A stretch of 64,000 bases of DNA, taken from the NCBI GenBank assembly GCA_035293405.1, contig DATDOE010000040.1, positions 95,672 to 159,671 of the forward strand, given 5' to 3'. The notes beneath the pieces are model-generated. The model saw only the letters and a list, made by a program, of their open reading frames with translations, did no database searches and was not told the DNA's origin. This document shows positions 13,607-49,631 of the stretch, piece after piece. Source of the DNA: Vicinamibacterales bacterium. Lineage in GTDB: Bacteria; Acidobacteriota; Vicinamibacteria; Vicinamibacterales; UBA2999. Made by a program: the position numbers and the translations under genes. How positions within the stretch are numbered: the stretch's first letter is position 1; each line of letters starts with the position of its first letter.

Positions 13607-13686
13607 GCCACGGAGGTCACGGAGATCACGGAGCCGACTGAGAGCCGTTCGACCGCGCGGCCAACATCTTCGTGGCCTCCGTGGCC
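13607..13686. repeat. CACGGAG-family heptamer repeat, compact forward+reverse (hairpin) copy
   Basis: gccacggaggtcacggagatcacggag ... cttcgtggcctccgtggc. Overlaps the last ~20 codons of the 13626-15458 ORF. Confidence 0.75.
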
Positions 13687-15458
13687 ACAGTCGGGGGGAT
13701 CATCACCCCCGAGTGTGCCACGTCGCTGCCCGTACCGTAACAGGGCCAGCCGAGCGGCTGCCACACACGGGTCGGCGAGCGGTCGCGGCGGACGTACAGG
13801 CTGACGCCGAATCGCCCGTCGAAGAGGTGCGTGGCCGCCAGCTCATAGCGCTCGTCGATGTAGGCGGTCACGATCGGAAACGACTTGTAGAAGTTCCGGA
13901 GCGACTCGTCGGTCTCGAGGAGAATCACCGGAACCGACTGCCGCTGCAGGCGAGCCAGCGTCAGGCGTTGCGCGTCCTCGGTCTCGAAGAAGCCGGGCCG
14001 CAGATCGGCGTGACCGCCGGCAAAGGCGCGGCGCGCCAGCGCCAGCACCTGCGGCATGTATGGCTGCACCAGGATGCGATCGGTCGGCACCGTGCACGCG
14101 TTGACGTACATCGCCAGCGTGATCAGATCCGGCCGGTCCTTGCGAGACGCCCAGGACTGCAAATCCCAATCGAGCCGCAGCTGTTCCGACACGCTGCCCA
14201 CGCGCTCGAAGGCTTGACCGAACCGCTCGGTCATCGCCGCCTTCTCGAGCCGGCTGTAGAAATCGCCACTCACGACCAGCATCAACAGCAGCGCGATCGC
14301 CGCTCCCACGGCCGCGGCCACGCCGCGTACTGCCCATCGACCCGGACGCAGCACCGGCTGCAGCGACGCGTCGCCTCTCCACATCCGCGGCAGCGCCACG
14401 GCCAGCCACGCGACGAGAATCACCAACGGCACCGACGGATCGGCGAGACGCGCCTCGAGCGGGCTGCGCAGAAACCCCACATCGAGCGCAGCGGTGAGCA
14501 CCGCAACCATCGCGAGCTTGGCCCGGGCATGCGGCCACTCTGGTCGGAACCCGTCACGCGAGACCGCCAGCACGAACAGGGCGAAGAACGGGAGCAGGAT
14601 CTCGAGGTAGTACATCCATGCCGTGGTGTTGTCGCGCAGCACGCCGACGAGCGATCCCGCCTTCGCGGCATCGGATACGCCATCGGGGTTCTCGAAGAGG
14701 CCTGGCCACACCACCGGCGCGCGGTCGCGATCGCGCTCCGCCCACGCCGACGCCTGGCGGAAGTAGGACACCAGACCGCCGTTGTACTCGATGAACGCGA
14801 GGTAGGGCGCCACCAGCAGCGCGACGAGCAGACCGTAGATCAGCACATGCCGAAGCCGCTCCCTCCAACGAAGCCTCGTCTGCGACAGCATCAGTACGGT
14901 CGTCGCGAGGCCGATGAACGCCCCGTGGTCGTGACGGAACAGGAAGCCGATGACGGTCACCACCGCAATCCAGGCACGGAGCCTGGCGCTCGGGCGATCG
15001 GCGAACCACCAGAGCAACGGGATTGCGGCGGCGTACACCAGGATCTTCGGATAGTTGTAGAAGCGTGGTCCCAGCCAGATGTGGAGGAAACATCCGGCGA
15101 GGCCGGCCCAGATCGATCCCGACGCCTTGGTAGCGAGCCAGAACGTCATCGCCGCGCCAATCGACAGGACCGTCGTACAGAAGACCAGCTCGGACACCGT
15201 GCCTCGTCCGAGCACCGCCTGCACCGCCGCGCCGACGTAGTAGAAGAGCGGCGCGCCGTGATCCACGAAGTCCTTGACCGGCAGATCGCCGAACAGAATC
15301 TGCCAGCCGCGGACGAGATAGAAGAAGTGATCGTCGGTCAGGCCCGCAAACGATCCACCAGGGTCGTTGAAGCGGAACAGCCAGGAGAAGACGACGATGC
15401 CCACCGCGAGGATCCACATTAGCGCGGTGCGCGCTCGCGGGGACATCCGGCCGCTCAC
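13626..15458 (-). CDS. large polytopic membrane protein, GT-C-like (ArnT/PMT-like) glycosyltransferase candidate
   Basis: 610 aa with more than 10 predicted TM helices, then a soluble C-terminal ~200 aa. Acidic DDH motif in the first loop (GLTDDHFFYLVRGW). ATGA overlap with the upstream gene. Fold assignment is inference. Confidence 0.65.
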   Translation of the reverse strand: MSGRMSPRARTALMWILAVGIVVFSWLFRFNDPGGSFAGLTDDHFFYLVRGWQILFGDLPVKDFVDHGAPLFYYVGAAVQAVLGRGTVSELVFCTTVLSIGAAMTFWLATKASGSIWAGLAGCFLHIWLGPRFYNYPKILVYAAAIPLLWWFADRPSARLRAWIAVVTVIGFLFRHDHGAFIGLATTVLMLSQTRLRWRERLRHVLIYGLLVALLVAPYLAFIEYNGGLVSYFRQASAWAERDRDRAPVVWPGLFENPDGVSDAAKAGSLVGVLRDNTTAWMYYLEILLPFFALFVLAVSRDGFRPEWPHARAKLAMVAVLTAALDVGFLRSPLEARLADPSVPLVILVAWLAVALPRMWRGDASLQPVLRPGRWAVRGVAAAVGAAIALLLMLVVSGDFYSRLEKAAMTERFGQAFERVGSVSEQLRLDWDLQSWASRKDRPDLITLAMYVNACTVPTDRILVQPYMPQVLALARRAFAGGHADLRPGFFETEDAQRLTLARLQRQSVPVILLETDESLRNFYKSFPIVTAYIDERYELAATHLFDGRFGVSLYVRRDRSPTRVWQPLGWPCYGTGSDVAHSGVMIPPTVATEATKMLAARSNGSQSAP

Positions 15459-17729: not shown

Positions 17730-18662
17730 TCACAGCCGATCGACGGCGGCCGCTTCGGAGCGGTTGAAGAAGACGGCTCCACCGCTGAAGATCGCCAGCG
17801 TGATCACGACGCCAATCGCGAGACCGAGGCCCGGAGGCTGTCCAATCCCCAGCAGGCCCCACTTGTACAGCTCGACCACCGGGCTCATCGGGTTCAGAAA
17901 CGCGACGAAGCGGAGCTGCTCGGGCAGCAGCTCCAGCAGCTTCGACAGCGGAAAGATCACCGGCGTGACGTAGTACCAGAGCTGCATGAAGTAGCGGATG
18001 GAGAACTGCACGTCCTTGTGGCGGACCTGCCACACCGCTGTCCACAGCCCGACCGCGATGGAGAGAAAGGCCGCCATCACCACCGCGACAAACGCCAACA
18101 GGCTCTGCGGTCCGACGCGAAGGTAGAACACACCGTCCTTCACGTAATAGAAGATGCACGCGCCGATCAGCAGTGCGAACAGCACCAGGAACTCGGTGAG
18201 GGCCGGGGCCACCGACGAGATCGGCGCAATCAGCCGTGGGAAATAGACCTTCTTGATCAGCCCACGGTTCGAATCCAGGCTGCGCGTCACCCGCTGCACG
18301 CCGCGCTCGAAGATGCGCCAGCAGGACATCCCGGCGAGGATGAACAGGAAATAGGGGATGCCGTCGGACGGCACCTGGAGCATGTTGCCGAAGATGATCG
18401 TGCTGATGAAGATCGGCATCAGCGGCCGCGCGAACAGCCAGAACTTGCCGAGCGTCGTGTCCTCGTACCGCTCCTTGATCCGTCGTCCCGCGAAGAACCA
18501 GAGAATGCGACGGTAGCGCCACAGCTCCTGAGTACGGGCCATGAGCCCGACGCGCACGGGCTCGATCACCCATTTCTGCGCCTTGCGATCGATGAAGGGC
18601 TCGCCGGCGCCCGCGGCGACCGGCGCACCGAGCCCCAGCAGGCGTCTAAGCCCGAGCGGCAT
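17730..18662 (-). CDS. wzm: ABC-2 type polysaccharide export permease (Wzm/TagG/KpsM-like)
   Basis: VIEPVRVGLMARTQELWRYRRILWFFAGRRIKERYEDTTLGKFWLFARPLMPIF is the typical Wzm N-terminus, followed by 6 TM helices. Confidence 0.85.
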   Translation of the reverse strand: MPLGLRRLLGLGAPVAAGAGEPFIDRKAQKWVIEPVRVGLMARTQELWRYRRILWFFAGRRIKERYEDTTLGKFWLFARPLMPIFISTIIFGNMLQVPSDGIPYFLFILAGMSCWRIFERGVQRVTRSLDSNRGLIKKVYFPRLIAPISSVAPALTEFLVLFALLIGACIFYYVKDGVFYLRVGPQSLLAFVAVVMAAFLSIAVGLWTAVWQVRHKDVQFSIRYFMQLWYYVTPVIFPLSKLLELLPEQLRFVAFLNPMSPVVELYKWGLLGIGQPPGLGLAIGVVITLAIFSGGAVFFNRSEAAAVDRL

Positions 18663-19905
18663 AGGCTTCCTGCCGGACGGTCCACTCGAGGCGCGGCGCG
18701 ATGAATCCCACGCGATCGAGCCGGCCCGAGGCCGGGGTGTCGGGCGTATCCGTCCCGAACACGAGGAACGACAGCGCGTTGTAGATGACGAGCGGATACT
18801 CCTTCGTCTCGTCCCCTTTCTTGAAGATGCAGCCGACGGTGGCGACGTAGGGCAGCTCGGCCAGCAGATCGCGCGGGATCTTGGCGAGTGCCTCGTAGAC
18901 GCCGGCTTCGGGCAGCGGTCGCATCTCGGTGTCCGACGTTCTGAAGATCAGTTGACCCTTCGTGCTCAGGTCGAGGGCGCACTTCACCGAGAGATTGCCC
19001 TTCGCCGTCCGGAAGCGCGTCTTGATGAACACGTCCTCGGACACCGGCGCGCCGCCAATGTCCTTGCCAGCCGCGGAGACCAGCCGCACCGACAACACCT
19101 CGGCGAGGCGATTGGATCGGCGGCCGCGCTCGGACTGAGCGATGTCGGCCTGGCTCCAGGTCGCGTTCTGATATTCGTCGACGACTTCTTCCGGATCGCC
19201 GAGTCGCGACACGGCGCCCTGATGCAGCCACATCACGCGATTGCAGATCCGAATGATCGCGTCCATGTCGTGCGACACGAACAGGACCGTGAGGCCGGCG
19301 CGTCCGAGCTCGGCGACCTTCTGCAGGCAGCGCTCCTGAAATGCCTGGTCGCCCACGGCGAGAATCTCGTCGGCGAGCAGGATCTGGGGATTCATGTGGA
19401 TCGCGACCGAGAAGGCCAGCCGCAGATACATGCCGCTCGAGTAATGGCGGAGCGGGCTGGTCACGAACTGCTCGACTTCGGCGAACTCCAGGATCTCCTG
19501 GACGCGGCGCTGCGCCTCGGTTCGCGGGATGCCGAGAATCGCCGCGTTCATCAGGATGTTGTCGCGCGCGGGCAGATCCGGATCGAAGCCGGCGCCGAGC
19601 TCGAGCAGCGAGACCACGCGGCCCACGCCCACCACGCGGCCGGTCGTGGGGGCAATCACGCGCGCCAGGATCTTGAGGAGCGTCGTCTTGCCGGCGCCGT
19701 TGGCGCCGATGACGCCCAGGATCGTGCCTGGCTCGACGCGAAACGACACGTCACGGAGCGCCCAGAAGTCCCGCGTCTTGGCGGATGACTCCGAGTCGCC
19801 CAGCGGCGACTTCAGCCGCTGCCACAGTGAGCGCGAGGATTTCCCCTCGGATTCACGGCCCAGGACGTAGCACTTCCCGAGACCGTCGACGACCAGACTA
19901 TCCAT
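18646..19905 (-). CDS. wzt: ABC polysaccharide export ATPase (Wzt/TagH-like) with a ~170-aa C-terminal extension
   Basis: Walker A GANGAGKTT, signature YSSGM, Walker B ILLADEILAVGD. The extra C-terminal domain is consistent with a Wzt_C-type glycan-binding module. Start at MDSLVVDGLGKCY (19905); an alternative ATG lies at 19932. Confidence 0.9.
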   Translation of the reverse strand: MDSLVVDGLGKCYVLGRESEGKSSRSLWQRLKSPLGDSESSAKTRDFWALRDVSFRVEPGTILGVIGANGAGKTTLLKILARVIAPTTGRVVGVGRVVSLLELGAGFDPDLPARDNILMNAAILGIPRTEAQRRVQEILEFAEVEQFVTSPLRHYSSGMYLRLAFSVAIHMNPQILLADEILAVGDQAFQERCLQKVAELGRAGLTVLFVSHDMDAIIRICNRVMWLHQGAVSRLGDPEEVVDEYQNATWSQADIAQSERGRRSNRLAEVLSVRLVSAAGKDIGGAPVSEDVFIKTRFRTAKGNLSVKCALDLSTKGQLIFRTSDTEMRPLPEAGVYEALAKIPRDLLAELPYVATVGCIFKKGDETKEYPLVIYNALSFLVFGTDTPDTPASGRLDRVGFIAPRLEWTVRQEAYAARA

Positions 19906-21669: not shown

Positions 21670-21703
21670 CCACGAAGAGCTCTGAGGTCAGATCGCCACG
21701 AGC

Positions 21704-22432
21704 ATGCGCACAGAAATCGGACATGTGGAGGCGATCTTCCGGTATCCCGTGAAGTCCATGGGCGGCGAACGACTCGAGGTGGCCAATCTGGGCTGGCACG
21801 GCCTCGATGGCGACAGACGCCTGGCATTCCGGCGGCTTGATGACCGCAGCGGGTTTCCGTGGCTGACCGCAAGCAAGCTTCCCGACCTGCTCCTGTTTGC
21901 TCCGCTCCGCCGTGAAGACAGTGCGCAGGGAGACCTTCCCACGCACGTTCGCACGCCGGATGGCGAAGAGATGCCTGTCTTTGGGGAGGACCTGGCCACG
22001 GAGGTCGGACGTCGGCACGGGGCTCCGGTGCAGATGATGCAGTTGAAGCACGGCATCTTCGATGATGCGAGCATCTCGGTGATCGCCGCCGATACGGTGC
22101 GCGAGATCTCACAACTCGCGGGGCGCAGCCCGGACGTGCGGCGATTTCGGCCGAATGTTGTCGTGCGCTTACTGCGTCCGGGGCCCTTCCAGGAGGACGA
22201 GTGGTTGGGTGGTGTGCTCTCATTCGGCGAGGGAGACGAGGCCCCCGCCATTGCCGTCACGATGCGCGACGTGCGCTGCTCGATGGTGAACCTTGATCCG
22301 GACTCGGCAAGTCCTGCGGCCGAAGTGCTGAAGGCAGTCGTTCGGGCGAACCAGAACAACGCGGGAATCTACGGCACCGTCACGCGCATCGGTCGACTGG
22401 CGGTCGGACAGACCATACGCCTCAACAAATGA
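21704..22432 (+). CDS. MOSC domain-containing protein
   Basis: GHVEAIFRYPVKSMGGERLE (MOSC N-terminal beta-barrel) ...FRPNVVV...MRDVRCSMVNLDPD. Confidence 0.85.
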   Translation: MRTEIGHVEAIFRYPVKSMGGERLEVANLGWHGLDGDRRLAFRRLDDRSGFPWLTASKLPDLLLFAPLRREDSAQGDLPTHVRTPDGEEMPVFGEDLATEVGRRHGAPVQMMQLKHGIFDDASISVIAADTVREISQLAGRSPDVRRFRPNVVVRLLRPGPFQEDEWLGGVLSFGEGDEAPAIAVTMRDVRCSMVNLDPDSASPAAEVLKAVVRANQNNAGIYGTVTRIGRLAVGQTIRLNK

Positions 22433-22462: not shown

Positions 22463-22531
22463 GCCACAGAGGACACGGAGATCTGGCCACGGAGAACACG
22501 GAGAATCGGCCACAAAGAGCACAAAGATCAC
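22463..22531. repeat. CACGGAG-family heptamer repeat cluster, forward orientation
   Basis: gccacagaggacacggagatctggccacggagaacacggagaatcggccacaaagagcacaaagatcac. Confidence 0.8.
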
Positions 22532-22664
22532 TGAGGCTTCTTCCGGAATGAGCCTCTTCGTGAGTTGGATGCCTCCGGCCGTAGACCAAACGTGGACGCC
22601 ATACGGTGCGGCGTTTATCGCGAACAGAGTCAAAGATTGGCAGACGGCCGGTCCGCGGCATGGG

Positions 22665-24728
22665 CTAAATATCTGATCGTCTTGGTTCGGAATGCACTGC
22701 CACCAGTCCGATCCGGCTGTGTCGAACATCTGGGTTCACTCCGCCCCGTCGAGGTGTGCCTGCCGGCCGACTCGCGATGACCGACACATGCGCTTTTCGC
22801 TCATCGCACCAGTCGGCACACCAGACCCATGCACCACGGAGTTGAGGAACGTCGGGAACAGTGTCGCCGCTATCTGGCAGGCGCCGACCAGACCACAGGC
22901 AATATACAAAGGCGTCATACCAAGACAAGCCAGAGACCAAGTTCTGCTGACTCCGCAGGTCAGGTCCGGCGCTCTGCTCGGGGACCAGACCGTCCGTCCC
23001 TGAAGTAGATCCCGTGCCGTCTTCTGCAATATATGTAGGATGCCAGCCGTAGCCAGTAGTGCGCCGCCATCCTGTAGCTTTCAAGAACGTCCGGTACTCG
23101 TCATTCGTCACCGGCCGTGCCCTTCCGTTTTCCCCAGTCCCAGTGAGCGCCCTTCGACATCTCGGGACCAGGAAACGGTTAACGTTGTAACTTCCGATGA
23201 GATCCAATCGAGCTATCGTCGAGGAGTCAAATCTCCTCAGGTCGTCGAAGAGCGATAGAGAGAGAAAGAACTCTTCGATTGAAGAGTGCGACCACGCGTA
23301 GTCACCTGATGGAGTCCGCGTCAGCAGTCCAGCGTGGACGAAACGGTTCGAATCGTCGCTGGCAGGTCGCCGCCCGGTCGACGCACAACGCTTGAGCACT
23401 TCCCAAGCGTCGTCGAGATCGTCGTTTGTGAACAGGCGGTCTCGTAAGAGTAGCGTCCGAATCGCGGCAGCATACAGCTCATCGAGGTCCGTGCGGCCGA
23501 TGACGCTGTGAAGTTCGGGGAGCGCAAGTTGCAGAAAGCGCAGAATTACTGGCACTCGGGGCAAGTTGTCCAAGACGTAGTCAATCGCGGGATTCTCCTT
23601 GCTGTCGGCACCAGCCGCTTCTAGCAGATACCGACGGGCGTCTTCTCTTGACAGCTCGATCAGCTCCATTCGACGAGGCACAGAATTACGCCGCAGGGCC
23701 GCCCTGATGGCATCATCCGTGGAGTCTCCGCTCTTGGGCGTCAGTCCCTTTGGTCGAAGCGCCTCTGTTACGACCTCGCTTGTCGCCTCAAAAGTTGTAC
23801 TTCGGCAGCTGTACACAAGTCGCGCCCCGATCGGAAGAAGTCGTCCGACGGCCGTCAACGTTTCGGCATAGTTGGCCTGATTGTCACCTGTAGGTCCGAT
23901 GAGCTCATCCAACCCATCGATGACGATCATGAGATTGGCGAGCTCGAGAATCTCGTCAGTAGGCACGGGGGGATCGGCGACCGCCAGAAGCTCTTGCCGG
24001 CTGGCTGGCCGCAAATGCTGAAGGTCCCTTGCGGGAATGAATATAGGAATGAACTCGTTGGATTCGGACAACCGGGCGCATAGTCCTCGAAGCAAATAGG
24101 TCTTTCCGGATCCTGGATCCCCCACGAGAACCAAATCCGACGCCTGCGGGTCTCTTATCCATGCGTCGATCGCGGCCCGTGCATCGATTGCTGGGCCAGA
24201 ACCTGCTCTTGCCGCAACGGAGACCAAGCGACGACCCGCCGTCAGGCCGTCGTACTTGGCCGCGTGCGCCTGGCGATACGTGACTAGGACGCCTGACCGT
24301 TGACCCTCTGGTCCTTCTTGACGGTGCTCTCTGCAAGCCTCGATGAGCAGGTCTATTCCAGACGGCATTCGCTCACGCAAGTCGATGTGCTTGTAGCGAG
24401 CTAGTGTGTCCGGGAGTTTGACATCGTCGATTCGAATCGGAACGAACCGTCGAGTGCGGTTCCTAGGATCGCGAAACAGTGCGGTGCTACGTTCGAGATC
24501 GACCCAGTCTGAACCCAGCGCATTCCAGGAGACAAACAGGGCAAGCACCCGCGACGTCTCTAGGCCAGCTTCGATGGACAGGTAAATGTCGTCACCAATA
24601 CCAATTTCCCACTCGTCAAACCAGACTCTCAGGCCGGCGTCGCGCAGTTTCGCGGCAACTGCCCGAACGATATCCTTGTCAGCAGAAGAGTGACTTAGAA
24701 ACACATCATAGGCATATGGTGGCGTCAT
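22665..24728 (-). CDS. TIR - P-loop NACHT/STAND NTPase - FGE/SUMF1-like domain protein (candidate anti-phage STAND)
   Basis: TIR: YDVFLSHSSADKDIVRAVAAKLRDAGLRVWFDEWEIGIGDD. Walker A LVLVGDPGSGKTYLLRGL with Walker B-like LMIVIDGLDEL. C-terminus PVTNDEYRTFLKATGW...GLSWYDAFVYCLWSGRRLPD...WVWCADW (FGE-sulfatase-like). Start set at ATG 24728; the track ORF extends to 25091 through a low-complexity leader. Confidence 0.8.
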   Translation of the reverse strand: MTPPYAYDVFLSHSSADKDIVRAVAAKLRDAGLRVWFDEWEIGIGDDIYLSIEAGLETSRVLALFVSWNALGSDWVDLERSTALFRDPRNRTRRFVPIRIDDVKLPDTLARYKHIDLRERMPSGIDLLIEACREHRQEGPEGQRSGVLVTYRQAHAAKYDGLTAGRRLVSVAARAGSGPAIDARAAIDAWIRDPQASDLVLVGDPGSGKTYLLRGLCARLSESNEFIPIFIPARDLQHLRPASRQELLAVADPPVPTDEILELANLMIVIDGLDELIGPTGDNQANYAETLTAVGRLLPIGARLVYSCRSTTFEATSEVVTEALRPKGLTPKSGDSTDDAIRAALRRNSVPRRMELIELSREDARRYLLEAAGADSKENPAIDYVLDNLPRVPVILRFLQLALPELHSVIGRTDLDELYAAAIRTLLLRDRLFTNDDLDDAWEVLKRCASTGRRPASDDSNRFVHAGLLTRTPSGDYAWSHSSIEEFFLSLSLFDDLRRFDSSTIARLDLIGSYNVNRFLVPRCRRALTGTGENGRARPVTNDEYRTFLKATGWRRTTGYGWHPTYIAEDGTGSTSGTDGLVPEQSAGPDLRSQQNLVSGLSWYDAFVYCLWSGRRLPDSGDTVPDVPQLRGAWVWCADWCDERKAHVSVIASRPAGTPRRGGVNPDVRHSRIGLVAVHSEPRRSDI

Positions 24729-25159
24729 GCTCGCGATCGATCTCACATCGTGTGGAGACAGGGCAGTTGCGTGGTGATCAGGCCGTGAATGTGTGGACGG
24801 CGACTCACCTCCCATACGGCTCGCGAAATTATCTGCCCGATTCGCGCTGGTAGAAAGCCCCGAAGAGGTGGCGGGCGCAGGTGCGCTGCCGGCGGTGCGC
24901 AAGTGTTGCTTGATGCCGGCGGCGACGGGCACGGTCCTCACCATGTTCCGAGGACGTCCGTGCCCCGCCGCCAGGCCCTTGCCTTGGTTTGTTAGATGCA
25001 TGGCGGACAGCACTGCCGCGATGCGGTGGTCACGGTCTAGGCATCGATCGCTGTCCTTGCCGCGCATCAGCGATTCGTCCTGAGTCGCCAAGGATTTACC
25101 TATGTTTTGCCCTCAAGGCGTAGCGGACTTCGTGTTCTTCCTGCCCCAACTCATTGATT

Positions 25160-25233
25160 TCCGTGTCCTCCGTGGCCAAAGATCTCCGTGATCATCGTGT
25201 CCTTTGTGGCCGATTCTCCCTGTCCTTCGTGCC
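25160..25233. repeat. CACGGAG-family heptamer repeat cluster, reverse orientation
   Basis: tccgtgtcctccgtggccaaagatctccgtgatcatcgtgtcctttgtggccgattctccctgtccttcgtgcc. Its reverse complement shares ggagaatcggccacaaag with the 22463-22531 copy. Confidence 0.8.
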
Positions 25234-25290
25234 GGTCCAGCCACAGAAGAACCGCAACCTGAATCAAATCGACCCGCCTACGATTACGCC

Positions 25291-26157
25291 ATGAACGAAC
25301 GGACGACTCGCAGCGACTATGCGATCCGCCTCGAACGGGTCTTCACGTGGCTGGTTGACCATCTGGACGAGACGCTCGATTTGCACCGTCTGGCCGAGGT
25401 CGCCTGCATGTCCCCGTATCACTTTCACCGGATCTACCACGCCATGCAAGGGGAGACCGCCGCCGACACGGTACGGCGGCTGCGCCTGCACCGGGCGGCG
25501 GTGGAGCTGATTACCGGTGAGCTGCCCGTGTCGCGCATCGCGCGCCGGGCCGGGTACGGAAGCCAGGAGGCGTTCACCCGAACATTCAAGGCCGCCTATG
25601 GCGTTCCGCCGGCACGCTACCGGGCCGCGTTCGTTCCCATGCCGACGGCCCACAGAACGGAGCACGAGATGAAGACGATGGACACGGAGACGAGGTATCA
25701 GGCGACCACACGAGAGCTACCGGGCATCACGGTGGCGGCGCTCGCGCACCGAGGCGATTACCAGACGATCCCCGGCACGTTCGTACGGCTGGCGACGATG
25801 GCGGGACCACTCCGCATGTTCCGGCCGGAAACACGATCGTTCGGAATCTATTACGACGACCCGGCGGCAACACCTGTGGAAGCGCTGCGGTCCGAGGCCT
25901 GCATGACGGTGCCAGACGACTGGACGCCGAGCGGCGATCTGGAGCGGCGTGAGATTCGGGGCGGCCGCTATGCGGTGGCGTTGCACGTCGGTCCGTACGC
26001 GGAGCTCGGTCACGTCTACACGTGGCTGTACGGCACGTGGCTCGCGCAGAGCGGAGAGGAAGCGGCCGACGCGCCGTGCATAGAGGAGTATCTGAACGAC
26101 GCGCGCACCGTCCCGGCAGCCGAACTCAGAACCGAGATCTGGTTACCGCTCCGCTGA
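25291..26157 (+). CDS. AraC-family transcriptional regulator fused to a GyrI-like small-molecule-binding domain
   Basis: HTH LHRLAEVACMSPYHFHRIYHAMQGETAADTVRRLRLHRAA...GYGSQEAFTRTFKAAYGVPPARYR. The C-terminal GyrI-like half ends ...EIWLPL. Confidence 0.85.
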   Translation: MNERTTRSDYAIRLERVFTWLVDHLDETLDLHRLAEVACMSPYHFHRIYHAMQGETAADTVRRLRLHRAAVELITGELPVSRIARRAGYGSQEAFTRTFKAAYGVPPARYRAAFVPMPTAHRTEHEMKTMDTETRYQATTRELPGITVAALAHRGDYQTIPGTFVRLATMAGPLRMFRPETRSFGIYYDDPAATPVEALRSEACMTVPDDWTPSGDLERREIRGGRYAVALHVGPYAELGHVYTWLYGTWLAQSGEEAADAPCIEEYLNDARTVPAAELRTEIWLPLR

Positions 26158-26191
26158 AGTCGCTGCCTCCATCTCCGCGTGACTCGAGGAC

Positions 26192-26581
26192 ATGAAGACC
26201 TACGAACACGAGTGGATTTTCGAGCCGTTTGCCAGGCACCGGACCTTCTTCACCAAGAGAATGTTCGGTGCGCTCGCCGCCTACCTCTTCGAGCGTCAGA
26301 TGCTGCTGCTCGTCGAGCCAACGAAGTCCGGCCGCTGGCGCTGGCACGGGGTTCTGGTCTGCACGGACTACGAACATCACGCGTCCCTTCAAGCCGAGTT
26401 CCCGGCGTTGATGCCGCATGCGGTGCTGCGAAAGTGGCTGTTCGTCGATTCGGCCCACGAAGATTTCGAATCGACGATGCACGCCGTGGCGACGCGGGTC
26501 GCACGCAACGATCCGCGCTTCGGTATCGTGCCCGGGAGTCCGAAACCAAAGAAACGAAAGCGCATCGGAGTGCGACGGTGA
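26192..26581 (+). CDS. hypothetical protein, weak TfoX-N-like resemblance
   Basis: 129 aa with SD GAGGA before the ATG. KRMFGALAAYLFERQMLLLV recalls the TfoX/Sxy N-terminal domain. Basic tail KPKKRKR. Confidence 0.5.
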   Translation: MKTYEHEWIFEPFARHRTFFTKRMFGALAAYLFERQMLLLVEPTKSGRWRWHGVLVCTDYEHHASLQAEFPALMPHAVLRKWLFVDSAHEDFESTMHAVATRVARNDPRFGIVPGSPKPKKRKRIGVRR

Positions 26582-26760
26582 ATGCCGTCTTGAGGTGGGT
26601 CCCGAACGAGCCAATCGGCAACAGATCGTCTCTGTCTGCCTTCCCACATTCAATATACGCGTGGCCGGCGCGGTTGACAAGACTGTTTGTGCCGATGATT
26701 TGTTGCTAGGGTGAGCGGACCGCCTCCGGTGCCGGCGACCGGAAATGAGCAAGGAGGTCC

Positions 26761-28455
26761 ATGCGAAAACCCGTTGGTCGTCCTCGTGGACTGCGCGCGA
26801 AGGAATCGGGCTCCACGCAAGACCGGCGTCGTCTGCTCGATCGCATTCTGGACACGCCGCATCTCGCCCGCGTGGTCCCTCACCTGCAGCCGGAGGTGCT
26901 TCACAGGATCATTCAGAGCTGCGGACTCGAGGATTGCGGCGAGATCGTGGCGCTGACGACGCCCGATCAGCTGGCGCGGGTCTTCGATCTCGACCTGTGG
27001 CGCCCCGCGCGACCGGGCTCGGACGAGGAGTTCGACGCCGAACGCTTCGGCCTCTGGCTCGAAGTGATGATGGAAGCCGGTGCGGCGGCCGCGGCGCGGA
27101 CACTCGCCGATGTCGACGTCGATCTGGCGACCGCGGCGTTCGCGCAGCACGTGCGCGTCTTCGATCCTGCGACCCTCTCGCCCGCTGAGACAGCGGACGG
27201 AGACGAGATGCCGGCCGGTGACACACCCAGCGATCATCTGAGTTGCGAGTTAGGCGGATACCTGGTCGTGGCCAGGGAGACCGACTCGTGGGACGCCGTC
27301 GTTGCCGTGCTGTCCGCCCTCGACGCGGAGCATCAGGCCTATTTCCATCGTGTGATGCGCGGGTGTAGAGACCTCACCAACTCCGGGTTCGAAATCGATG
27401 GCCTGGACGATCTGCTCACACACACAGAGCAGACGATGTTCGACCTGGCGTTCGATCGGGAACAACGCCGGGAACAGCACGGGTACGTGACAGCGCCGCA
27501 GGCCCGGGCGTTTCTCCAGATGTCGCGACAGCTGCCGCTCGGCCACGACGCCACGCCGCCCGGCAATCCCGTCGCCCGTGCGTATTTCCGGGCCGTCGAA
27601 TGGACGCCGGCGGACGCGGACAGCGGATCTCACCGTTTGCCGGAGGCATCAGGCGCAGCGCCCGCTGCGGACGACTCCGCCGAGGCCGCCGCCGCCATCG
27701 TCGGAGTGCTTGTCGACGCGGGAATCCTTCCTCAGCAGCCTCGCGGGTTACTCGAGGGACCGAAAGGTCACGCGCCACGTCTTGCGCGTATTCAGACGCA
27801 GATGCAACTCGCTGCTGACCGCGACCACGCGGCGTTTTCGATGAGGAGCCAGGAGCTCGCCTTTCTGGCGAACACGATCGTGGCCGGATGCCCCATCCAG
27901 GCACGGCCCTTCACGGCGCAAGAGGCATCGGACGCCGCTGTTGCGACCTGCAACCTTGGCCTGGAGAACTGGCCGGCCCGCTGGCTCTCAGCCGACCCAC
28001 GCGGCGGCTCCTCCGTTTCACTGCCCGACGACTTTCTCGTCGCGCACGATCTGATCGGCGTGTTTCAGGTCGGATGGACCGTCCTCCACGACGATGTCTG
28101 CATGGACACCGCGGAGCGATTGCTCGGTGTGCTGGCCCATCTCGAGTGTGGCGACCGCGAGACGCAAGCCGGACTCACGGCACTGCGGATCGCGATGACC
28201 AAGCATTGGCGGGCTGGAGCACCGTGGCGGGCCCGTCACGCGCTGGATGTGATCACGATCCTGGACATGCCCGCGTGGGCCACGCTGCTCGGACTGATGG
28301 ACGAATGCCCGGTCATACACGCCGGTATGGCCGTATCCCAAGGCTCACACACCCGCGAGATCAGCGCCACGGCCTTCGAATTCATCTCGGAGAACAGTCA
28401 GATCGCGTCGGTCCACGAATTCATGCGGCTGCTGCCGGAGACACTGCGCGGGTGA
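26761..28455 (+). CDS. conserved hypothetical protein (564 aa), function unknown
   Basis: Strong SD AAGGAGG 5 nt upstream of the ATG. Globular-looking sequence (LLDRILDTPHLARVVPHLQPEVLHRIIQSCGLEDCGEIVALTTPDQLARVFDLDLW). I recognised no catalytic motif. Confidence 0.65.
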   Translation: MRKPVGRPRGLRAKESGSTQDRRRLLDRILDTPHLARVVPHLQPEVLHRIIQSCGLEDCGEIVALTTPDQLARVFDLDLWRPARPGSDEEFDAERFGLWLEVMMEAGAAAAARTLADVDVDLATAAFAQHVRVFDPATLSPAETADGDEMPAGDTPSDHLSCELGGYLVVARETDSWDAVVAVLSALDAEHQAYFHRVMRGCRDLTNSGFEIDGLDDLLTHTEQTMFDLAFDREQRREQHGYVTAPQARAFLQMSRQLPLGHDATPPGNPVARAYFRAVEWTPADADSGSHRLPEASGAAPAADDSAEAAAAIVGVLVDAGILPQQPRGLLEGPKGHAPRLARIQTQMQLAADRDHAAFSMRSQELAFLANTIVAGCPIQARPFTAQEASDAAVATCNLGLENWPARWLSADPRGGSSVSLPDDFLVAHDLIGVFQVGWTVLHDDVCMDTAERLLGVLAHLECGDRETQAGLTALRIAMTKHWRAGAPWRARHALDVITILDMPAWATLLGLMDECPVIHAGMAVSQGSHTREISATAFEFISENSQIASVHEFMRLLPETLRG

Positions 28456-28477
28456 CTGTGAGAATGCAGGGGTCTTG

Positions 28478-28529
28478 GGCCACGGAGGCCACGGAGATTA
28501 GGCCACCGGAGAATCAGCCACAAAGAGCA
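28478..28529. repeat. CACGGAG-family heptamer repeat cluster, forward orientation
   Basis: ggccacggaggccacggagattaggccaccggagaatcagccacaaagagca. Confidence 0.8.
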
Positions 28530-28704
28530 TGAGCCGTAGACCAGAGTCGGGCACCATACACTACGGCGTTTTCGGCGAGGCAACGGCACCCCACTGCGGC
28601 GAAACTGCCGAACATGCTGATGAAAGCAGACCCATTCATACTCGACGTGTTCGAATGTGAGCTGCTCGTCGCTCAAACTCCGGCTCGCCCTTGGTAACGA
28701 AACG

Positions 28705-29370
28705 ATGACTACCTCACACGATCGGATCGCACTTCGTGCGTATGAGCTCTTTGAGGCGCGGGGAAAGCAACACGGTCAGGACTGGGCCGACTGGTTCGAG
28801 GCAGAGCGCGACATACGTGACCATTCTCGCGCCCGCTACTTCAGTTTGGCGCTCCAGTACTACGTTGCCGGGCGGTTTGCCGTTCATGCCAGCCTCAATC
28901 CTGTCGCTGGCAATCTCTTACATCACGCGATCGAGCTCGCGCTCAAAGGCGGTTTGGCACGTGTGACAAGTTCGGAGGATCTCAAGAAGAAATACATGCA
29001 CTCGCTCAATCCGCTGTGGAGAGACTTCAAATTGAGCGTCAGTGACCCACGGCTCGATCGGTTGGATCGAGTCGTCAGCGAGCTGGATCAATTTGAAACG
29101 ATTCGATATCCGGAGCACGTAGAGCAGCACGGAATGTTGGCGTCGATCGCGCCGATTCGCCGTGATCAAGACGCGAAGGGCCCAAGAAAACTACCGTCTC
29201 CCGTGCCGCGGTATAAGTTGTATCTCCCTGAGATCGATGGGTTGCTTGATGCGGTATTCGTTGGTGCGAGCGTCAACCCAGCATTCTTCAAGGGTGAAGT
29301 ATTCAAGAGCGAAGCACGAGACTTCCTGGGACGCGATAACATGACTCGTCTGCGAGATCTCGGCCCGTGA
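28705..29370 (+). CDS. DUF2934-like N-terminus plus HEPN-like helical domain protein
   Basis: RIALRAYELFEARGKQHGQDWADWFEAERDI (DUF2934-type), then ALQYYVAGRFAV...LLHHAIELALKG...FETIRYPEH (HEPN-like). Locally lower GC. Confidence 0.5.
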   Translation: MTTSHDRIALRAYELFEARGKQHGQDWADWFEAERDIRDHSRARYFSLALQYYVAGRFAVHASLNPVAGNLLHHAIELALKGGLARVTSSEDLKKKYMHSLNPLWRDFKLSVSDPRLDRLDRVVSELDQFETIRYPEHVEQHGMLASIAPIRRDQDAKGPRKLPSPVPRYKLYLPEIDGLLDAVFVGASVNPAFFKGEVFKSEARDFLGRDNMTRLRDLGP

Positions 29371-29376
29371 CATCGC

Positions 29377-29411
29377 GGGGAGGCCCCTTGGCGTTGGTTC
29401 GGCCTCCCCTA
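29377..29411 (+). terminator. stem-loop downstream of the HEPN-like gene
   Basis: ggggaggcc-ccttggcgttggttc-ggcctcccc: 9-bp GC stem starting 7 nt after the stop. No clear T-tract. Confidence 0.35.
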
Positions 29412-29670
29412 CCCGACGCGGCCCCGACTACTCCTGATAGGTCGCCTATTGTTTATCAAACGCGTGCGACCGTCGCGGCCTTGATGGTCCTTTCGACATC
29501 GATCAGAATCGGCTCGACCTCGATCCTGAATCGAAAACACAAGACTGCGTTCGGGCTGAGGCGTATGCCAAACATCGAACGCCTCCAAGTTGGACGCCAT
29601 GGGCTTGGCAGACTGGAAGTGGCTCTAAGGCGTTTCGGGAATCTTTGCGTTCCTGGCCCAAGCTCAATAG

Positions 29671-29713
29671 TCTCCGTGCGCTCCGTGGCCAAAGATCTTC
29701 GTGATCTTCGTGG
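29671..29713. repeat. CACGGAG-family heptamer repeat cluster, reverse orientation
   Basis: tctccgtgcgctccgtggccaaagatcttcgtgatcttcgtggc. The reverse complement resembles that of the 25160-25233 copy (gatcacg[ag]agatctttggccacggag). Confidence 0.8.
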
Positions 29714-43586: not shown

Positions 43587-44529
43587 GAAACCTGCGTCAC
43601 TCGCTCGTTATCTTGATCCGGACCCGAGGCGTGTTGCAAGCCGCGCGGCGTCGATCAGGCTGGCCGAATCCGCGACGTTCTGCCCGCAATGTCGAACGCC
43701 GTTCCACGATCGAGCAATGGCGAATTCGTCGTAGCGGAGGGTCTCTAGCCCGCCGTGAGAGCTGGGTCAGACCCCGGCGACGATCCAACTCACGGCTTGC
43801 AGAAAATGCGTACTTAGCAACTTGGGAAGCTGGTCGTTCTTGCGATCTTCACGGTGCTTCGACAGACGCCCTTGGCGTTTCGCTAACACTTCTTCGCCGC
43901 ACGGTTGTGGGCGCGCGCTTTGCTCTCTTCAGTCGCACACGAGGCGAAGTGATCTTGATCTTGCCGGCGTGTTCATGCGATCAAGCGGCTCCAGAGTGCA
44001 ACGACGTGGGTCTACCCGCATCTTTAGTGTGCGTTGCACTGAAACTGCATCCCGATGCGATTCCTGTGCACGCTCAGCCGACCATCTATTCAGATCCCGT
44101 CTATGATTCATGAGATTCACGACGTTCTGGCTCAGGTCATGATGCGCGATGACTGGGTGAAGGCGACCATAGCCGTGGGGCAAGAGGCGGCAGGGTTCGA
44201 CATTGCACGTCTCTTTGGACGACGCTGGAGCGCCTCGCTGCCCGGATTGATTCACCACAGAGTCAGCTGGAATGCACGTTTGCGACGCATATTCTCGAGC
44301 GGGCCGCAATGGAAGTGCTGCGAACGCAGGCTGCCTATGGCATCAAGAGTCACGAAGCGCATTCAACGAATGGAATCATGTTCTAAGAATCATCGAAGCT
44401 GTCCAATGGGTCGAATTGCCCGATCGACTCCGAACCGCCGACCACGTGGTCGAGGTTCACTCGCTCGCCTGTCGCGTCCGGACGTTCCTGAACAGTCACG
44501 TCACACAGAGGTCGCTCAAGGAGTGTTGC

Positions 44530-47226
44530 ATGGGCCGTGTGAAGAGCAGTGTCGTCGGTTCGAGGGCTGGAGCCCCGCAGTTGGTATTTGACTCTATGAG
44601 CAGACAGATCCTCTGCTGCATCTTCGCCACCGCGCTATTGCTCGCTGCGGATAGCGATGCCGGAGCGCAAGGCCTCTCGATTGCGCCGAACCTGGCAACC
44701 CCGCGCCCGGCTGGAACGGCCATTACCTGGACAGCCACAGTGAGCGGAGGCACGGCGCCGTTCACCTATCGGTGGTATGTCTCGCCCGATTCCGGCGGCA
44801 CATGGAACCTGATGCAGGACTGGAGCACATCGGCGACGTTTGCCTGGAACCCAAGCGTGCCTGGTGTCTACCTGGTGTCAGCGTGGGTACGCAACGCCGG
44901 CAATACCTCTGATAACCGGGATGACGGCACGTCCTACTACTATCAGATCACGACGCCATTGCTGCAGGTGTCGTTGGCGGCCGATCGGTCTGCCCCTCAG
45001 CCAGCGACGACGACGATACGGTGGACCGCGTCCACGTCCGGAGGAACGGCTCCGTATTCGTACAAGTTTTGGGTGACGGCGAATAACGGGGCAACCTGGC
45101 AAATAGTACAGGATTGGAGTCAGACTCCGACCTTCGACTGGATACCGAACCAGGCTGGCAACGACTATTTCGTGGCGGTGTGGGCACGTAGTGCGGGGAA
45201 CACGGCGGACGCGTACGACGATGCGACGTCTCGGCCGTTTCCGATTAGCGCGGCGCCTGTGGGTGCGTCGATAACTGTGAATCAACCAGCACCACAAGGG
45301 ACCGGCACGACGATCACATGGACCGCGTCGTCATCCGGTGGCGTTTCCCCACACAGCTACAAGTGGTGGCTCTCAACGGACAACGGTATCAATTGGCAAG
45401 CGATGACCGGCTGGAGCACGAGTACGACGTACCAGTGGGCCCCGGTGAACCCGGCACCGACTGCCGTGATGAAGGTGTGGGCCCGTGGCGCCAACAACAA
45501 CACGGAGGCCTACGAGAACACGGCGTCGATGCCGTATGCCGTCACACGAGGCACGACGCAGGTATCGCTTAGTAACGACCGGTCGTCTCCGCAATCAGCG
45601 GGTTCCTTGATTACCTGGACGGCAGTCGGACAGGGCGGGGTCCCTCCGTATAGCTACAAGTGGTGGACTTCAGTTGACGGCGGGACGAATTGGAACCAGG
45701 TAGCGGACTGGAGTACGAACGCCACGTTGACGTGGCAGCCCTGGGTGCCGAGCGATAACTACGTCGTGGCTGTTTGGGTCAGAAGCGTCGACAACACCAC
45801 TGACTATCGCGAGGACGCCACGTCAGCGCTTTATGCGATCAACTCTTGTAGTTTTACGTTGAATCCGCCCTCAATCGATCTGTCGTCGGCCGGAGGTACA
45901 TATTCGATTTCCTTCACGCCGTCGTCACCTACCTGCGGATGGGCCGCAGCGAGCACCGTCGGCTGGGTGCAGGTCACGGGGTCAACGCAAGGGGTTGGGT
46001 CTGGTTCAACGACGATCTTCGTGGAGCCGAACCAGGGATCGACCCCACGCGCGGCGCCCCTGCTCATCGGGAGCGCGGGCGTAGACCTCGACCAGGCGTG
46101 GAATAACAACGGCGTCAATGACTGGACGTGGCCCCCGGGTAGTTCGGGCGGATCTGGCGGCGGCGGTGGCGCTTGCGGGGTAACAATCAGCCCCGCCGAA
46201 ATCACGCTCCCGCCAGGTGGGGGGGCCGCTCAAGTGACGCTGAATGCAGGCACCAGCTGCAACTGGTCGATTGCCGGGAACGACTGGCTATCGCTCAGTG
46301 CACCGAATGGACAGGGCAGCGCTGTCATAACCCTAACGGCGCCGGTGAATCCTCAGACCTATGCGCGTGGGCTACTGCTGTCCGTAAACGATTCTTGGCT
46401 CGCTGTGCTCCAAAGCGGCAGCGAGGAGGGCGCAACGTTCTATGCGGCGCAACAGACGCCATCGCCATCACTCGTTGCATCTGGTGGCGTCCTCGATTGC
46501 CAGTTTACGATCAATACAGGAAACCGGAATCGCTTTCTCTTCGCGACGATGGGAGTCTACCTTGACGATAGACTGATTGGCACCGTGTCACAAAATGGTC
46601 ATCAGTATTCCCTTCGTGTGATGCGCATGTATCAAGACAGACCGTGGGCTCGCACGGCTACGTGTGTGGTCCGCCGTGTGCCGACAGGCGAAGTAATCAG
46701 GACCAGCTCGATTCAAATAGCGGCGGTTGGTGGACCAGTGTGCGTACCCTTATTGCAACAATCGCTCAAGATCTACTCCTACTCCTTGCGAGACGACCTC
46801 GGTCTCGTCTGGTCAGCTGCCGAAAAACTAGTGGTTCAAAACCTTACCTCACGTTGGAACAGTCTTGTTGCGAGATACAGCGCGGCCACCTCTGTCCGTC
46901 CCTTTCGATTGGAAACCAACGCCGGAGCGGCGAATCTATGGCTCATTATTAATCCTAGTATGATCAATACCGGCGTGTGGGGGCATTATCACGACGGTAT
47001 CCTCGACATCAATCCACAAGCACTCCAGGAGTCGTTTGCATTCCGCGACGGCATCATCCTGCACGAACTCGGGCACGCGCGTGGCTATGGCCACGTGAGC
47101 AACGCATGCCCCGTGTCGGATTCGATCATGTATCCAGAGGCATCACCAATTGGACTCTACCCGAGGGATCTCGGCCCTGGCGACGATATCGCAACCGAAA
47201 GAGACATTTTGGGTCTTCCGAATTGA
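44530..47226 (+). CDS. secreted multidomain protein: 4 Ig-like (Y_Y_Y-type) repeats, 2 BACON-like domains, C-terminal matrixin-like zinc metalloprotease
   Basis: SD AAGGAG 6 nt before ATG 44530 (alternative ATG at 44596). Signal-like ILCCIFATALLLAADSDAGAQG. Four ~100-aa repeats (ITWTA..GG.(A/P)P(F/Y)(S/T)Y(K/R)(W/F)W...G..W...DWS). Two Cys-bracketed domains (CSFTLNPPSIDL..., CGVTISPAEITL...). HELGHARGYGH at nt 47062-47094 followed by SIMYP. Confidence 0.8.
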   Translation: MGRVKSSVVGSRAGAPQLVFDSMSRQILCCIFATALLLAADSDAGAQGLSIAPNLATPRPAGTAITWTATVSGGTAPFTYRWYVSPDSGGTWNLMQDWSTSATFAWNPSVPGVYLVSAWVRNAGNTSDNRDDGTSYYYQITTPLLQVSLAADRSAPQPATTTIRWTASTSGGTAPYSYKFWVTANNGATWQIVQDWSQTPTFDWIPNQAGNDYFVAVWARSAGNTADAYDDATSRPFPISAAPVGASITVNQPAPQGTGTTITWTASSSGGVSPHSYKWWLSTDNGINWQAMTGWSTSTTYQWAPVNPAPTAVMKVWARGANNNTEAYENTASMPYAVTRGTTQVSLSNDRSSPQSAGSLITWTAVGQGGVPPYSYKWWTSVDGGTNWNQVADWSTNATLTWQPWVPSDNYVVAVWVRSVDNTTDYREDATSALYAINSCSFTLNPPSIDLSSAGGTYSISFTPSSPTCGWAAASTVGWVQVTGSTQGVGSGSTTIFVEPNQGSTPRAAPLLIGSAGVDLDQAWNNNGVNDWTWPPGSSGGSGGGGGACGVTISPAEITLPPGGGAAQVTLNAGTSCNWSIAGNDWLSLSAPNGQGSAVITLTAPVNPQTYARGLLLSVNDSWLAVLQSGSEEGATFYAAQQTPSPSLVASGGVLDCQFTINTGNRNRFLFATMGVYLDDRLIGTVSQNGHQYSLRVMRMYQDRPWARTATCVVRRVPTGEVIRTSSIQIAAVGGPVCVPLLQQSLKIYSYSLRDDLGLVWSAAEKLVVQNLTSRWNSLVARYSAATSVRPFRLETNAGAANLWLIINPSMINTGVWGHYHDGILDINPQALQESFAFRDGIILHELGHARGYGHVSNACPVSDSIMYPEASPIGLYPRDLGPGDDIATERDILGLPN

Positions 47227-47238
47227 CCAGGAGAGAAC

Positions 47239-47829
47239 ATGAAATCCTCGATTGCGAGAGCGACGTTGCTTGCCACTGCTGTCATCGTCAGTCCCGTCCC
47301 CGTTGTAGACCGATCCGCTCATGCTGAACAGAAGCCTGTGCAGGAGCGCGAGACGATTATCGAGGCGATGGTACCTCCAGAATCGCTTAGTGAAATGGTG
47401 CGCGTGGTCGATGCGGTGATCCTGGCAACATTCACCGGAAAGGGGCAATTCATCGAACCCAGTACGCCCTACGGAATCGAGTTTACGAATTACGTGTTCG
47501 TAGTCGATGAGATCATGAAGCCCGATGCGTTAGTAGGCGTCGTGGGAGATGAATTGACAGTCAGAATGATCGGAGGTGAAAAGGAATTCGCTACGCACAT
47601 CCGGCGAACTCGGGTTGCAGGAGTCGATCCGCTTCTCCAAGGTCGCAAGTATGTGATGTTTCTGCGACGTCATCCGACGAAGAACTCTGTTGACCTCGCT
47701 TGGGGGCCTAACAGTGTGTACGACGTCACCCAAGGTACTGTTCGGCCCATCGAGCGTGAATTGAAACGCCGCGACGGTGCGCCCGCCGCTGCGTTTATCG
47801 AAGCGTTGAGGGTCGCAGCGGCACAATAA
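47239..47829 (+). CDS. small secreted hypothetical protein co-transcribed with the metalloprotease
   Basis: SD AGGAGA. Starts 12 nt after the upstream stop. Signal peptide MKSSIARATLLATAVIVSPVPVVDRSAHA. No recognisable domain. Confidence 0.6.
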   Translation: MKSSIARATLLATAVIVSPVPVVDRSAHAEQKPVQERETIIEAMVPPESLSEMVRVVDAVILATFTGKGQFIEPSTPYGIEFTNYVFVVDEIMKPDALVGVVGDELTVRMIGGEKEFATHIRRTRVAGVDPLLQGRKYVMFLRRHPTKNSVDLAWGPNSVYDVTQGTVRPIERELKRRDGAPAAAFIEALRVAAAQ

Positions 47830-47914
47830 GAGTTCCCGCGATCAACACCGCGTCGAAGACACTCGAGCTCCGTCGACTGTGCGTGCTCCGCGAACCGCGC
47901 GAAAGACCTGCTAG

Positions 47915-48793: not shown

Positions 48794-48896
48794 GAGGAAT
48801 CATGGGTCTCGCGCAGACGATCTGCGGTGACGTGTGCGCGAATTGCCGACCGAATTGCCGACCTCTCGAACGCCTGAGTGCGTGTATTCTTCCTCT

Positions 48897-49622: not shown

Positions 49623-49631
49623 GACCTCACG

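Follow-up and report, generated by a model that had tools for sequence, protein, structure and literature searches.

The window analysed here is a 64,000-nucleotide (nt) stretch of a Vicinamibacterales genome (assembly GCA_035293405.1, contig DATDOE010000040.1, positions 95,672 to 159,671), and our subject is a set of short repeat arrays within it that are built from the heptamer CACGGAG and its variants. The stretch also forms part of a 245-kb metagenome contig (ENA ERZ27254861 k141_1222857); window positions 11704-32432 match locus L001 at 100% identity, and a JGI contig from sample 3300002124 is likewise identical. An initial annotation had described five clusters of these heptamers and had proposed that inverted pairs of them bracket gene cassettes. 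The region concerned carries, in order, NadE (+), MOSC (+), array B, a gene encoding a TIR-NACHT-FGE protein (−), element D, an AraC/GyrI-like regulator gene (+), a gene of 129 amino acids (aa), DUF6178 (+), element C, an uncalled open reading frame (ORF; +), element E, a DCC1-like gene (−) and a TylF methyltransferase gene (−); element A lies upstream of this block. Scanning the 64 kb with the pattern CAC[GA][GA]AG recovered all five clusters where they had been placed and no further cluster of two or more heptamers. None was present in the 9.2 kb upstream of the window on the same contig, giving a survey of 73 kb of the source genome. Exact CACGGAG was found 28 times (expected 16.2 ± 3.6), and clusters of at least three degenerate heptamers were observed five times against 0.015 expected in 200 first-order Markov simulations, which produced at most one. 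The clusters are confirmed as non-random and as real copies of a repeat family.

The units in the five clusters are CACGGAG, CACGAAG, CACAAAG and CACAGAG, or their complements. They follow one another mostly at a 9-nt period, the repeat unit being a nonamer (7+2), and the array ends read TTCAC-CACGGAG and GCCACGGAG. Element A (13607-13686) consists of three forward and two reverse nonamers around a 34-nt loop (scan span 13609-13683, +++--). It overlaps the last ~20 codons of a 606-aa ORF (13626-15446, −), and a methyltransferase gene starts 6 nt from its end. Array B (22463-22562, +) begins 30 nt after the MOSC stop and holds six forward heptamers, arranged as three super-units with an additional period of 23 nt, followed by one reverse heptamer (scan span 22465-22562, ++++++-). 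Its non-heptamer tail ('L-inner', 22563-22625, +) is common to the tail of element C. Element D (25092-25233, −) comprises five reverse heptamers (scan span 25128-25231, -----) and an inner tail ('R-inner', 25092-25160, −) that is homologous to the tail of element E. Element C (28478-28578, +) starts 23 nt after the DUF6178 stop, with three to four forward heptamers at 28478-28529 (scan span 28481-28525, +++) and a tail at 28530-28578. In element E (29620-29713, −), an inner tail at 29620-29670 is followed by four reverse heptamers at 29672-29712 (----), which abut the DCC1-like stop at 0 nt; the junction on the minus strand reads TAG followed directly by CCACGAAG. The same junction recurs directly after the NadE stop, where a degenerate 34-nt array remnant is found (21670-21703, +; TAG and then CCACGAAG...).

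The alternation of orientation between 22.4 and 29.7 kb (+, −, +, −) and the existence of longer cores common to several copies were both correctly described by the initial annotation. Homology continues past the heptamers: 22578-22623 in the B tail resembles 28533-28578 in the C tail (74%), and 25100-25199 on the tail side of D resembles 29620-29712 on that of E. As had also been noted, A alone forms a compact hairpin (−45.1 kcal/mol, z = −2.0), and B, C, D and E folded singly are no better than shuffles; the arms pair across 34 nt in A, across 2.6 kb between B and D, and across 1.15 kb between C and E. The window therefore contains one complete copy (A), four half or partial copies and one remnant. 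All six sites are intergenic or overlap an ORF end. B, C, E and the NadE remnant trail stop codons, with B, C and E in sense orientation, and part of the alternation arises because each of these three is co-oriented with the gene whose stop it trails. Element D is the exception to this rule, since it sits in the divergent spacer between the TIR-NACHT-FGE and AraC/GyrI genes. The AraC/GyrI-like regulator beside it (25291-26157, +) has a Pfam match to Cass2 ('integron-associated effector binding protein') as well, which reflects a fold common to GyrI-like domains and is not evidence of an integron.

Both bracketed genes are foreign to their surroundings. The window has an overall GC content of 65%, parts of the region from 22 to 30 kb fall to 57-60%, and the two cargo genes lie at 57-59% against 64-68% in neighbouring genes. 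The first encodes an 800-aa TIR-NACHT-FGE-sulfatase domain protein (22665-25067, −; GC 58.8%; Pfam and PADLOC assignments). Its nearest homolog among 5.8 billion proteins is 53% identical and lies on a contig of 48% GC without nonamer arrays; the idea that this gene is a travelling cassette was dropped on that account. The combination of TIR, NACHT and a C-terminal FGE-sulfatase-like domain is uncommon and marks an NLR-like candidate defence protein, some relatives of which have SEFIR in place of TIR. The second block (28572-29406, +; GC 56.8%) contains, with flanks of its own, an ORF at 28705/28657-29370. The initial annotation had described a 'HEPN-like gene' of 1.2 kb here. A gene is indeed present, but it measures 666-714 nt and carries an N-terminal DUF2934 domain (Pfam E 2.5e-11), the C-terminal HEPN match being only faint (E 0.12). 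It has no PDB, NCBIfam or PADLOC match and was not called by the ENA or JGI gene callers. The ORF at 28657-29370 is nevertheless a real gene, with a homolog at another locus (L193) that is 90% identical at the aa and 87% at the nt level over exactly window positions 28572-29406. In L193 the context differs, with an IS3 fragment, a barstar-like gene, and neither arrays nor tails. The supposed tie between the bracketed genes and the repeats thus does not hold: the L193 DUF2934 gene and the 53% identical TIR-NACHT-FGE homolog both occur without arrays, and the cargo is independent of them.

To compare the locus with close relatives, we obtained three syntenic loci, L183, L187 and L188, through searches with protein P0002 and DUF6178. 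Relatives chosen by MOSC identity (90-93%, first three) were set aside, being non-syntenic and devoid of CACGGAG arrays. L187 and L188 (92-96% identity) and L183 (91%) are collinear with window positions 11952-32852. Four indels of at least 100 nt separate the window from these relatives, and each of them is located in a spacer that bears an array; only three indels, of 13-57 nt, interrupt the 17 kb of collinear blocks. The L187 ortholog of element A has three forward and nine reverse units (12 versus 5) and is 110 nt longer. The NadE-MOSC spacer of L187 and L188 holds a full array with a tail, partly shared with L-inner in L187, and exceeds that of the window by 143 nt, whereas the window keeps only the degenerate remnant after NadE. 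Positions 9824-9898 of L187, in this NadE-MOSC spacer, are 89% identical to window array B (E 7e-21), which in the window follows MOSC instead. Arrays thus vary in length and are found at different positions in closely related genomes.

Gene content differs at the same places. Between MOSC and the AraC/GyrI gene, B, the TIR-NACHT-FGE gene and the D tail of the window have as their counterparts in the relatives a 222-aa gene plus a GNAT gene; homology resumes exactly at 25149 (ATCAATGAG), beside the D array. The D array itself, with CTTTGTG units, is kept in place upstream of the AraC/GyrI gene in L183 and L187 together with the GNAT gene, and is therefore not bound to the TIR-NACHT cargo. The DUF6178-DCC1 spacer measures 1260 nt in the window (C, the DUF2934 gene and E) and 236 nt in L183, which lacks element C and has another short-repeat array. 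At L183 3512-3747, a period-7 (CCTTTGT)n array bounded by CTTCGTG units is followed by GGCCCAAGG-type repeats. The short-repeat arrays of this spacer are replaced wholesale between genomes that are ~91% identical. The breakpoints relative to these loci lie 14 nt past the MOSC stop, at ATCAATGAG by D, and where the C tail ends on its inner side. Hence they are near heptamers and none is at them, contrary to the expectation that genes would be present or absent exactly at the repeat boundaries. Overall, the array-bearing spacers are where gene content differs from the relatives. The MOSC gene (21704-22432, +) has more than 8000 database relatives at 86-93%, three of the closest being in unrelated gene contexts, and its homology block with L187 is discrete, beginning 5 nt ahead of the start and ending 14 nt past the stop; the gene may itself be mobile or recombining.

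An exact-pattern scan with one genome per species returned at least 119 stretches, from which the taxa given below are a sample. Many of the listed stretches are coding tandem repeats or chance matches, and about half have at least three heptamers in non-coding DNA. The non-coding matches are very often palindromes (+++ loop ---) or inverted arrays 30-300 nt apart. Inverted pairs of (CACRGAG NN)x3 enclosing 10-300 nt occur in at least ten phyla, the array-bearing taxa including Acidobacteriota (Vicinamibacterales and Terriglobia), Gemmatimonadota, Verrucomicrobiota, Planctomycetota, Chloroflexota (Anaerolineae), Myxococcota, Desulfobacterota, Bacteroidota, Pseudomonadota (alpha-, beta- and gamma-) and a Methanocellaceae archaeon. 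The archaeal case is a 4+3-unit CACGGAG palindrome of bacterial type in a metagenome-assembled genome (MAG; L105 2450-2561), for which contamination or mis-binning is possible. Of ~250 heptamer spacings of up to 40 nt in the element-bearing loci, 198 are exactly 9 nt. By rough gene calls, 31 elements lie in tandem, 12 in convergent and six in divergent spacers, and a stop is usually found within 0-30 nt of them. Arrays also separate core genes, as between pdh E1alpha and E1beta in Geobacter metallireducens and between gmd and fcl in Bacteroides ovatus.

Several genomes contain dispersed families of 170-215-nt copies that are 84-93% identical to one another. In the Deltaproteobacteria MAG M1802, three 210-nt copies (L095 5808-6035, L097 501-715 and L102 2826-3032; 86-90%) contain internal CACGGAG arrays, and each lies a few nt past a different stop. 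Two of them are flanked by direct repeats of ~8 bp (ATCTAGAT/ATCTAGAT and CTAGTCCC/CGAGTCCC) and the third only by CTAGG. These flanking repeats all contain CTAG or CGAG, and the family provides the clearest hint of transposition, into a CTAG-like target. A Chthoniobacterales MAG has three copies of 170-190 nt. Searching with a consensus hairpin located copies at 15 places on two Gemmatirosa megaplasmids and, in the interval from gmd to the fucose synthase gene, on plasmids of Bacteroides. The hairpin on a plasmid of the gut bacterium Bacteroides ovatus, NZ_CP081918.1 (L222 3001-3075), reads TTCAC CACAGAG GA CACGGAG GG CACAGAG ... and separates gmd from the GDP-L-fucose synthase gene. On plasmid 1 of Gemmatirosa kalamazoonensis (L223 17180-17515, 19880-20210 and 25720-26050), 165-nt elements contain nested nonamer arrays, the outer of CCGCAGAGG and the inner of CACGGAGGA type, and their arms seem to grow by unit addition and to degenerate outward.

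Further cores were found in the same 9-nt register, namely GGAGTCTAG (in a relative), AATCAGTCC, AATCCGTGT and CCCCGTG. The relative concerned, L180 (GCA_040961035.1; MOSC 90%), carries at 1-1540 and 18590-18770 a nonamer family of GGAGTCTAG / GGGGTCTAG with the same architecture. This includes one complete 160-nt palindrome, one array beyond a PilZ gene, and inverted GGAGTCTAG-family arrays around a 127-aa 23S_rRNA_IVP (four-helix-bundle) gene, no homolog of which was found near other arrays.

An enzyme that might act on the arrays was sought at several levels. The 73 kb of contig contain no recombinase, integrase or Pfam transposase. The initial annotation had called for a search for a RAYT/TnpA(REP)-like enzyme, and none was found in these 73 kb or in the loci compared, the window and loci having been searched for Y1-transposase/RAYT-like ORFs by single-sequence comparison with an E. 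coli RayT query. All-versus-all clustering of the ORFs within 1.5 kb of arrays at ~60 element-bearing loci gave no recurrent family, and no parent insertion sequence (IS) with the same ends was found in this limited sample of ~60 loci. Neither tRNA nor tmRNA genes were found as integration targets.

The closest published counterpart is a catalogue entry for G. metallireducens GS-15, the 'class 2 paired sites' (Gmet_I2xx), in which TCTCCGTS[Y] is repeated three times in tandem at a period of 8-9 nt (Aklujkar et al., 2009; PMC2700814). Twenty-one such sites are listed, as pairs on opposite strands at variable distance; IHF/HU-like binding was speculated and no function was assigned. In Table S4 of the same paper, all 13 listed class 2 pairs lie in tandem or convergent spacers between ordinary or core genes, and the IS110-family element ISGme8 adjoins the related class 1 sites. 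TCTCCGTS[Y] is the reverse of CACGGAG plus a spacer, corresponding to the 9-nt CTCCGTG/CACGGAG units of the window, and both sets are multi-copy, intergenic, located 3' of genes and paired on opposite strands. The window arrays and the class 2 sites are the same kind of element, catalogued and uncharacterised. The catalogue covers a single genome and does not report gene-bearing pairs, the cross-phylum range or variability between relatives. The copies in Vicinamibacterales are distinguished by longer arrays (up to ~10 units), by 23-nt super-units and by spacers rich in GATC. Searching the literature for the sequence itself gave nothing relevant, this entry being the only one in the searched literature.

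Among established repeat classes, the arrays resemble repetitive extragenic palindromic (REP) sequences and their bacterial interspersed mosaic element (BIME) and REPIN assemblies in being extragenic, multi-copy and mostly downstream of genes, in forming long hairpins from inverted doublets, and in occurring as mosaic clusters with strain variation and alternating orientation. The related Geobacter class is, like REPs, a target of IS110-family insertion. In the definition of Di Nocera et al. (PMC3733652), the REP unit is palindromic in itself and bears a tag, either GTAG or CGTC. That unit is a 20-40-nt palindrome, whereas the arms described here are non-palindromic and untagged; only array pairs are palindromic, the single arrays B-E being not. 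REPs are mobilised by RAYT, a Y1 HUH transposase, and neither RAYT nor TIRYT was found in the window or the loci compared. [quoted passage not shown] Terminal inverted repeats, small size and lack of coding sequence characterise A and the copies in other genomes and not the gene-enclosing pairs B..D and C..E. Unlike MITEs, one core extends across phyla and the heptamer orientation relative to the element ends differs between families. Arms built of tandem sub-repeats are also known from eukaryotic foldback elements. Integron cassettes, pdif modules and the mobile insertion cassette (MIC) MIC231 similarly place single accessory genes without mobility functions between short repeated sites, which are inverted in pdif modules and MICs. 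Integron attC sites are co-oriented, with a GTTRRRY core and IntI/attI, but the arrays here alternate and lack both attC core and integrase; pdif sites are 28-bp XerC-6-XerD (11-6-11) sequences rather than tandem nonamers of 25-100 nt, and MICs have IS ends, which are absent here. In contrast to all these gene-capture systems, the cargo here also occurs without sites and the sites without cargo.

Taken together, these comparisons make it fairly probable (roughly 0.6) that the clusters belong to a REP/MITE-like dispersed repeat family forming preferred breakpoints, and hence a rearrangement hotspot, rather than to a dedicated cassette-exchange system. Tandem nonamers (CACGGAG + 2 nt) laid out as inverted arrays yield long imperfect DNA palindromes, located between genes and preferentially behind stops. 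The family would multiply within genomes by a transposition-like spread; arrays gain and lose units, most likely through slippage, and copies turn up at new intergenic positions between close relatives. Being repeated, palindromic and tolerated only between genes, they could become preferred breakpoints, beside or between which low-GC foreign genes such as those for TIR-NACHT-FGE and DUF2934 may have been inserted or swapped by recombination or illegitimate insertion. An inverted 'bracket' could then originate either from the co-orientation of B, C and E with the genes whose stops they trail, or from the splitting of a complete inverted-pair element by an insertion. The best explanation of the bracket is accordingly not site-specific cassette machinery. 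The suggestion of a REP/BIME-like system marking accessory DNA was right in kind, the arrays being extragenic, palindromic, multi-copy, mosaic and variable, but they flank core genes too and are not confined to accessory ones (between NadE and MOSC in L187/L188, between the methyltransferase gene and the 606-aa ORF in both the window and L187, and in G. metallireducens and B. ovatus).

Several observations weigh against the dispersed-repeat interpretation. No autonomous element or cognate transposase/RAYT was found in the 73 kb or in ~1 Mb of loci, and no target-site duplication is recognisable at the window copies A, B..D and C..E. Two of the three inverted pairs in the window enclose a gene, whereas no inverted pair was seen to do so in the element-bearing loci of other genomes; L180 adds one gene-enclosing case, made of a different nonamer. 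For MITEs or REPs, it is also unusual that a single heptamer core is conserved between phyla and even domains. Finally, the inner tails are shared on the same sides (B with C, D with E) despite the opposite directions of the genes, an order that exceeds what random insertion predicts.

It is possible that the arrays are instead operator-like sites for a nucleoid-associated protein of the IHF/HU type or for a global regulator, with the three tandem sites of each arm recruiting an oligomer, and serve chromosome organisation or regulation without being mobile. Such a role was what the authors first proposed for the class 2 sites of G. metallireducens, which are identical (PMC2700814), and the strict 9-bp period with its conserved core suits a protein-recognition code whose conservation across phyla suggests a conserved reader; the D array, moreover, occupies a region of divergent promoters, and relatives have kept it. 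We regard it as rather unlikely, since most copies lie behind stops and not in promoters, unit number and position shift between genomes that are ~95% identical, the family-specific flanks and flanking duplications resemble mobile DNA, and no candidate protein was found. It is compatible with the dispersed-repeat explanation. Somewhat greater doubt attaches to a role as 3'-untranslated-region RNA elements, in which hairpins would terminate transcripts or protect mRNA 3' ends and one-armed copies would expose GGAG/GGA to ribosomes or a CsrA-like protein. The position 0-30 nt past stops, the sense orientation of B, C and E, the very stable stems, and the recurrence of GGA every 9 nt in several nonamer families would fit such a role, which REPs and MITEs are known to play (PMC3733652). 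Yet of 19 hairpins for which the upstream gene could be defined, six fold better as the transcribed strand and 13 as the antisense strand, and G.U pairs show no strand preference. As the palindromes are equally stable on both strands and without G.U bias, they appear to be repeats at the DNA level. Solo arrays B-E are unstructured, the CACAAAG and CACGAAG units lack GGA, and most hairpins have no U-tract. An intrinsic terminator scan found eight terminators against 9.6 expected, with a weak hit inside A only, and Rfam gathering and E-value searches recognised no family, the single 22-bit hit (RAGATH-31, on A) being noise. A related idea, that the units act as a CsrA sponge or Shine-Dalgarno mimic (CANGGANG), was dropped, because degenerate units lose the GGA and hairpins would bury the motif; the missing folding advantage of the sense strand also opposes it. 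The evidence speaks more for a repeat at the level of DNA than for an RNA structure under selection, with transcription through the elements being likely.

The cassette insertion or exchange first envisaged for this locus would have an enzyme encoded elsewhere use the inverted arrays as recombination sites, there to capture, invert or exchange single genes in the manner of attC, pdif or MICs. Two single-gene low-GC units with homologous left and right inner tails, in either gene orientation and both missing from the relatives, would suit such a system, and the L180 23S_rRNA_IVP gene between inverted GGGGTCT nonamer arrays could be a further instance. This is improbable in our view, because close homologs of each cargo gene lie at other loci free of arrays and tails, none of the three breakpoints coincides with a heptamer, the D array is kept even where the gene beside it is another one, core genes too are flanked by arrays, and neither a recombinase in the 73 kb nor a gene-bearing inverted pair in the loci of other genomes was found. 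A broader variant is likewise unlikely, if a shade less so: that the CACGGAG arrays are a code read by some widely conserved protein of DNA binding or recombination, a transposase or nucleoid factor common to many bacterial phyla and some archaea, the interior or neighbourhood of the palindrome serving as a landing pad for single defence or accessory genes, and so might constitute a class of gene-capture site distinct from integrons and pdif. Chance or low-complexity sequence, which short heptamers in a GC-rich genome might invite, is scarcely credible given the excess over simulation (five versus 0.015), the flank homology, the orthologous conservation and the same architecture in many genomes.

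Elsewhere in the window, a second low-GC stretch at 44000-50000 (59%) encodes a 984-aa protein, for which BNR is the only and a faint match, besides several ORFs that match nothing in Pfam. No heptamer arrays flank this stretch, indicating that low-GC islands here do not need the repeats. A protein with a HipA-like kinase C-terminal domain (toxin-antitoxin type; 60773-62035, +) adjoins a TetR/RND efflux operon.

At this locus, a Vicinamibacterales genome from soil or groundwater carries a fast-evolving repeat family, and from the array positions one can predict the places at which close relatives differ in gene content, among them that of the TIR-NACHT (NLR-like) candidate defence gene. That Bacteroides, Geobacter, Gemmatimonadota, Acidobacteriota and a methanogen all have one 7-nt core in an identical 9-nt register points to either an unrecognised mobile-element system of very broad distribution or a conserved DNA-binding factor, and both possibilities can be tested in the cultivable G. 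metallireducens, Bacteroides ovatus and Gemmatirosa kalamazoonensis. When genomes are scanned, arrays of this kind are best taken for REP/MITE-like signs that an intergenic spot is plastic, and not for the boundaries of cassettes.

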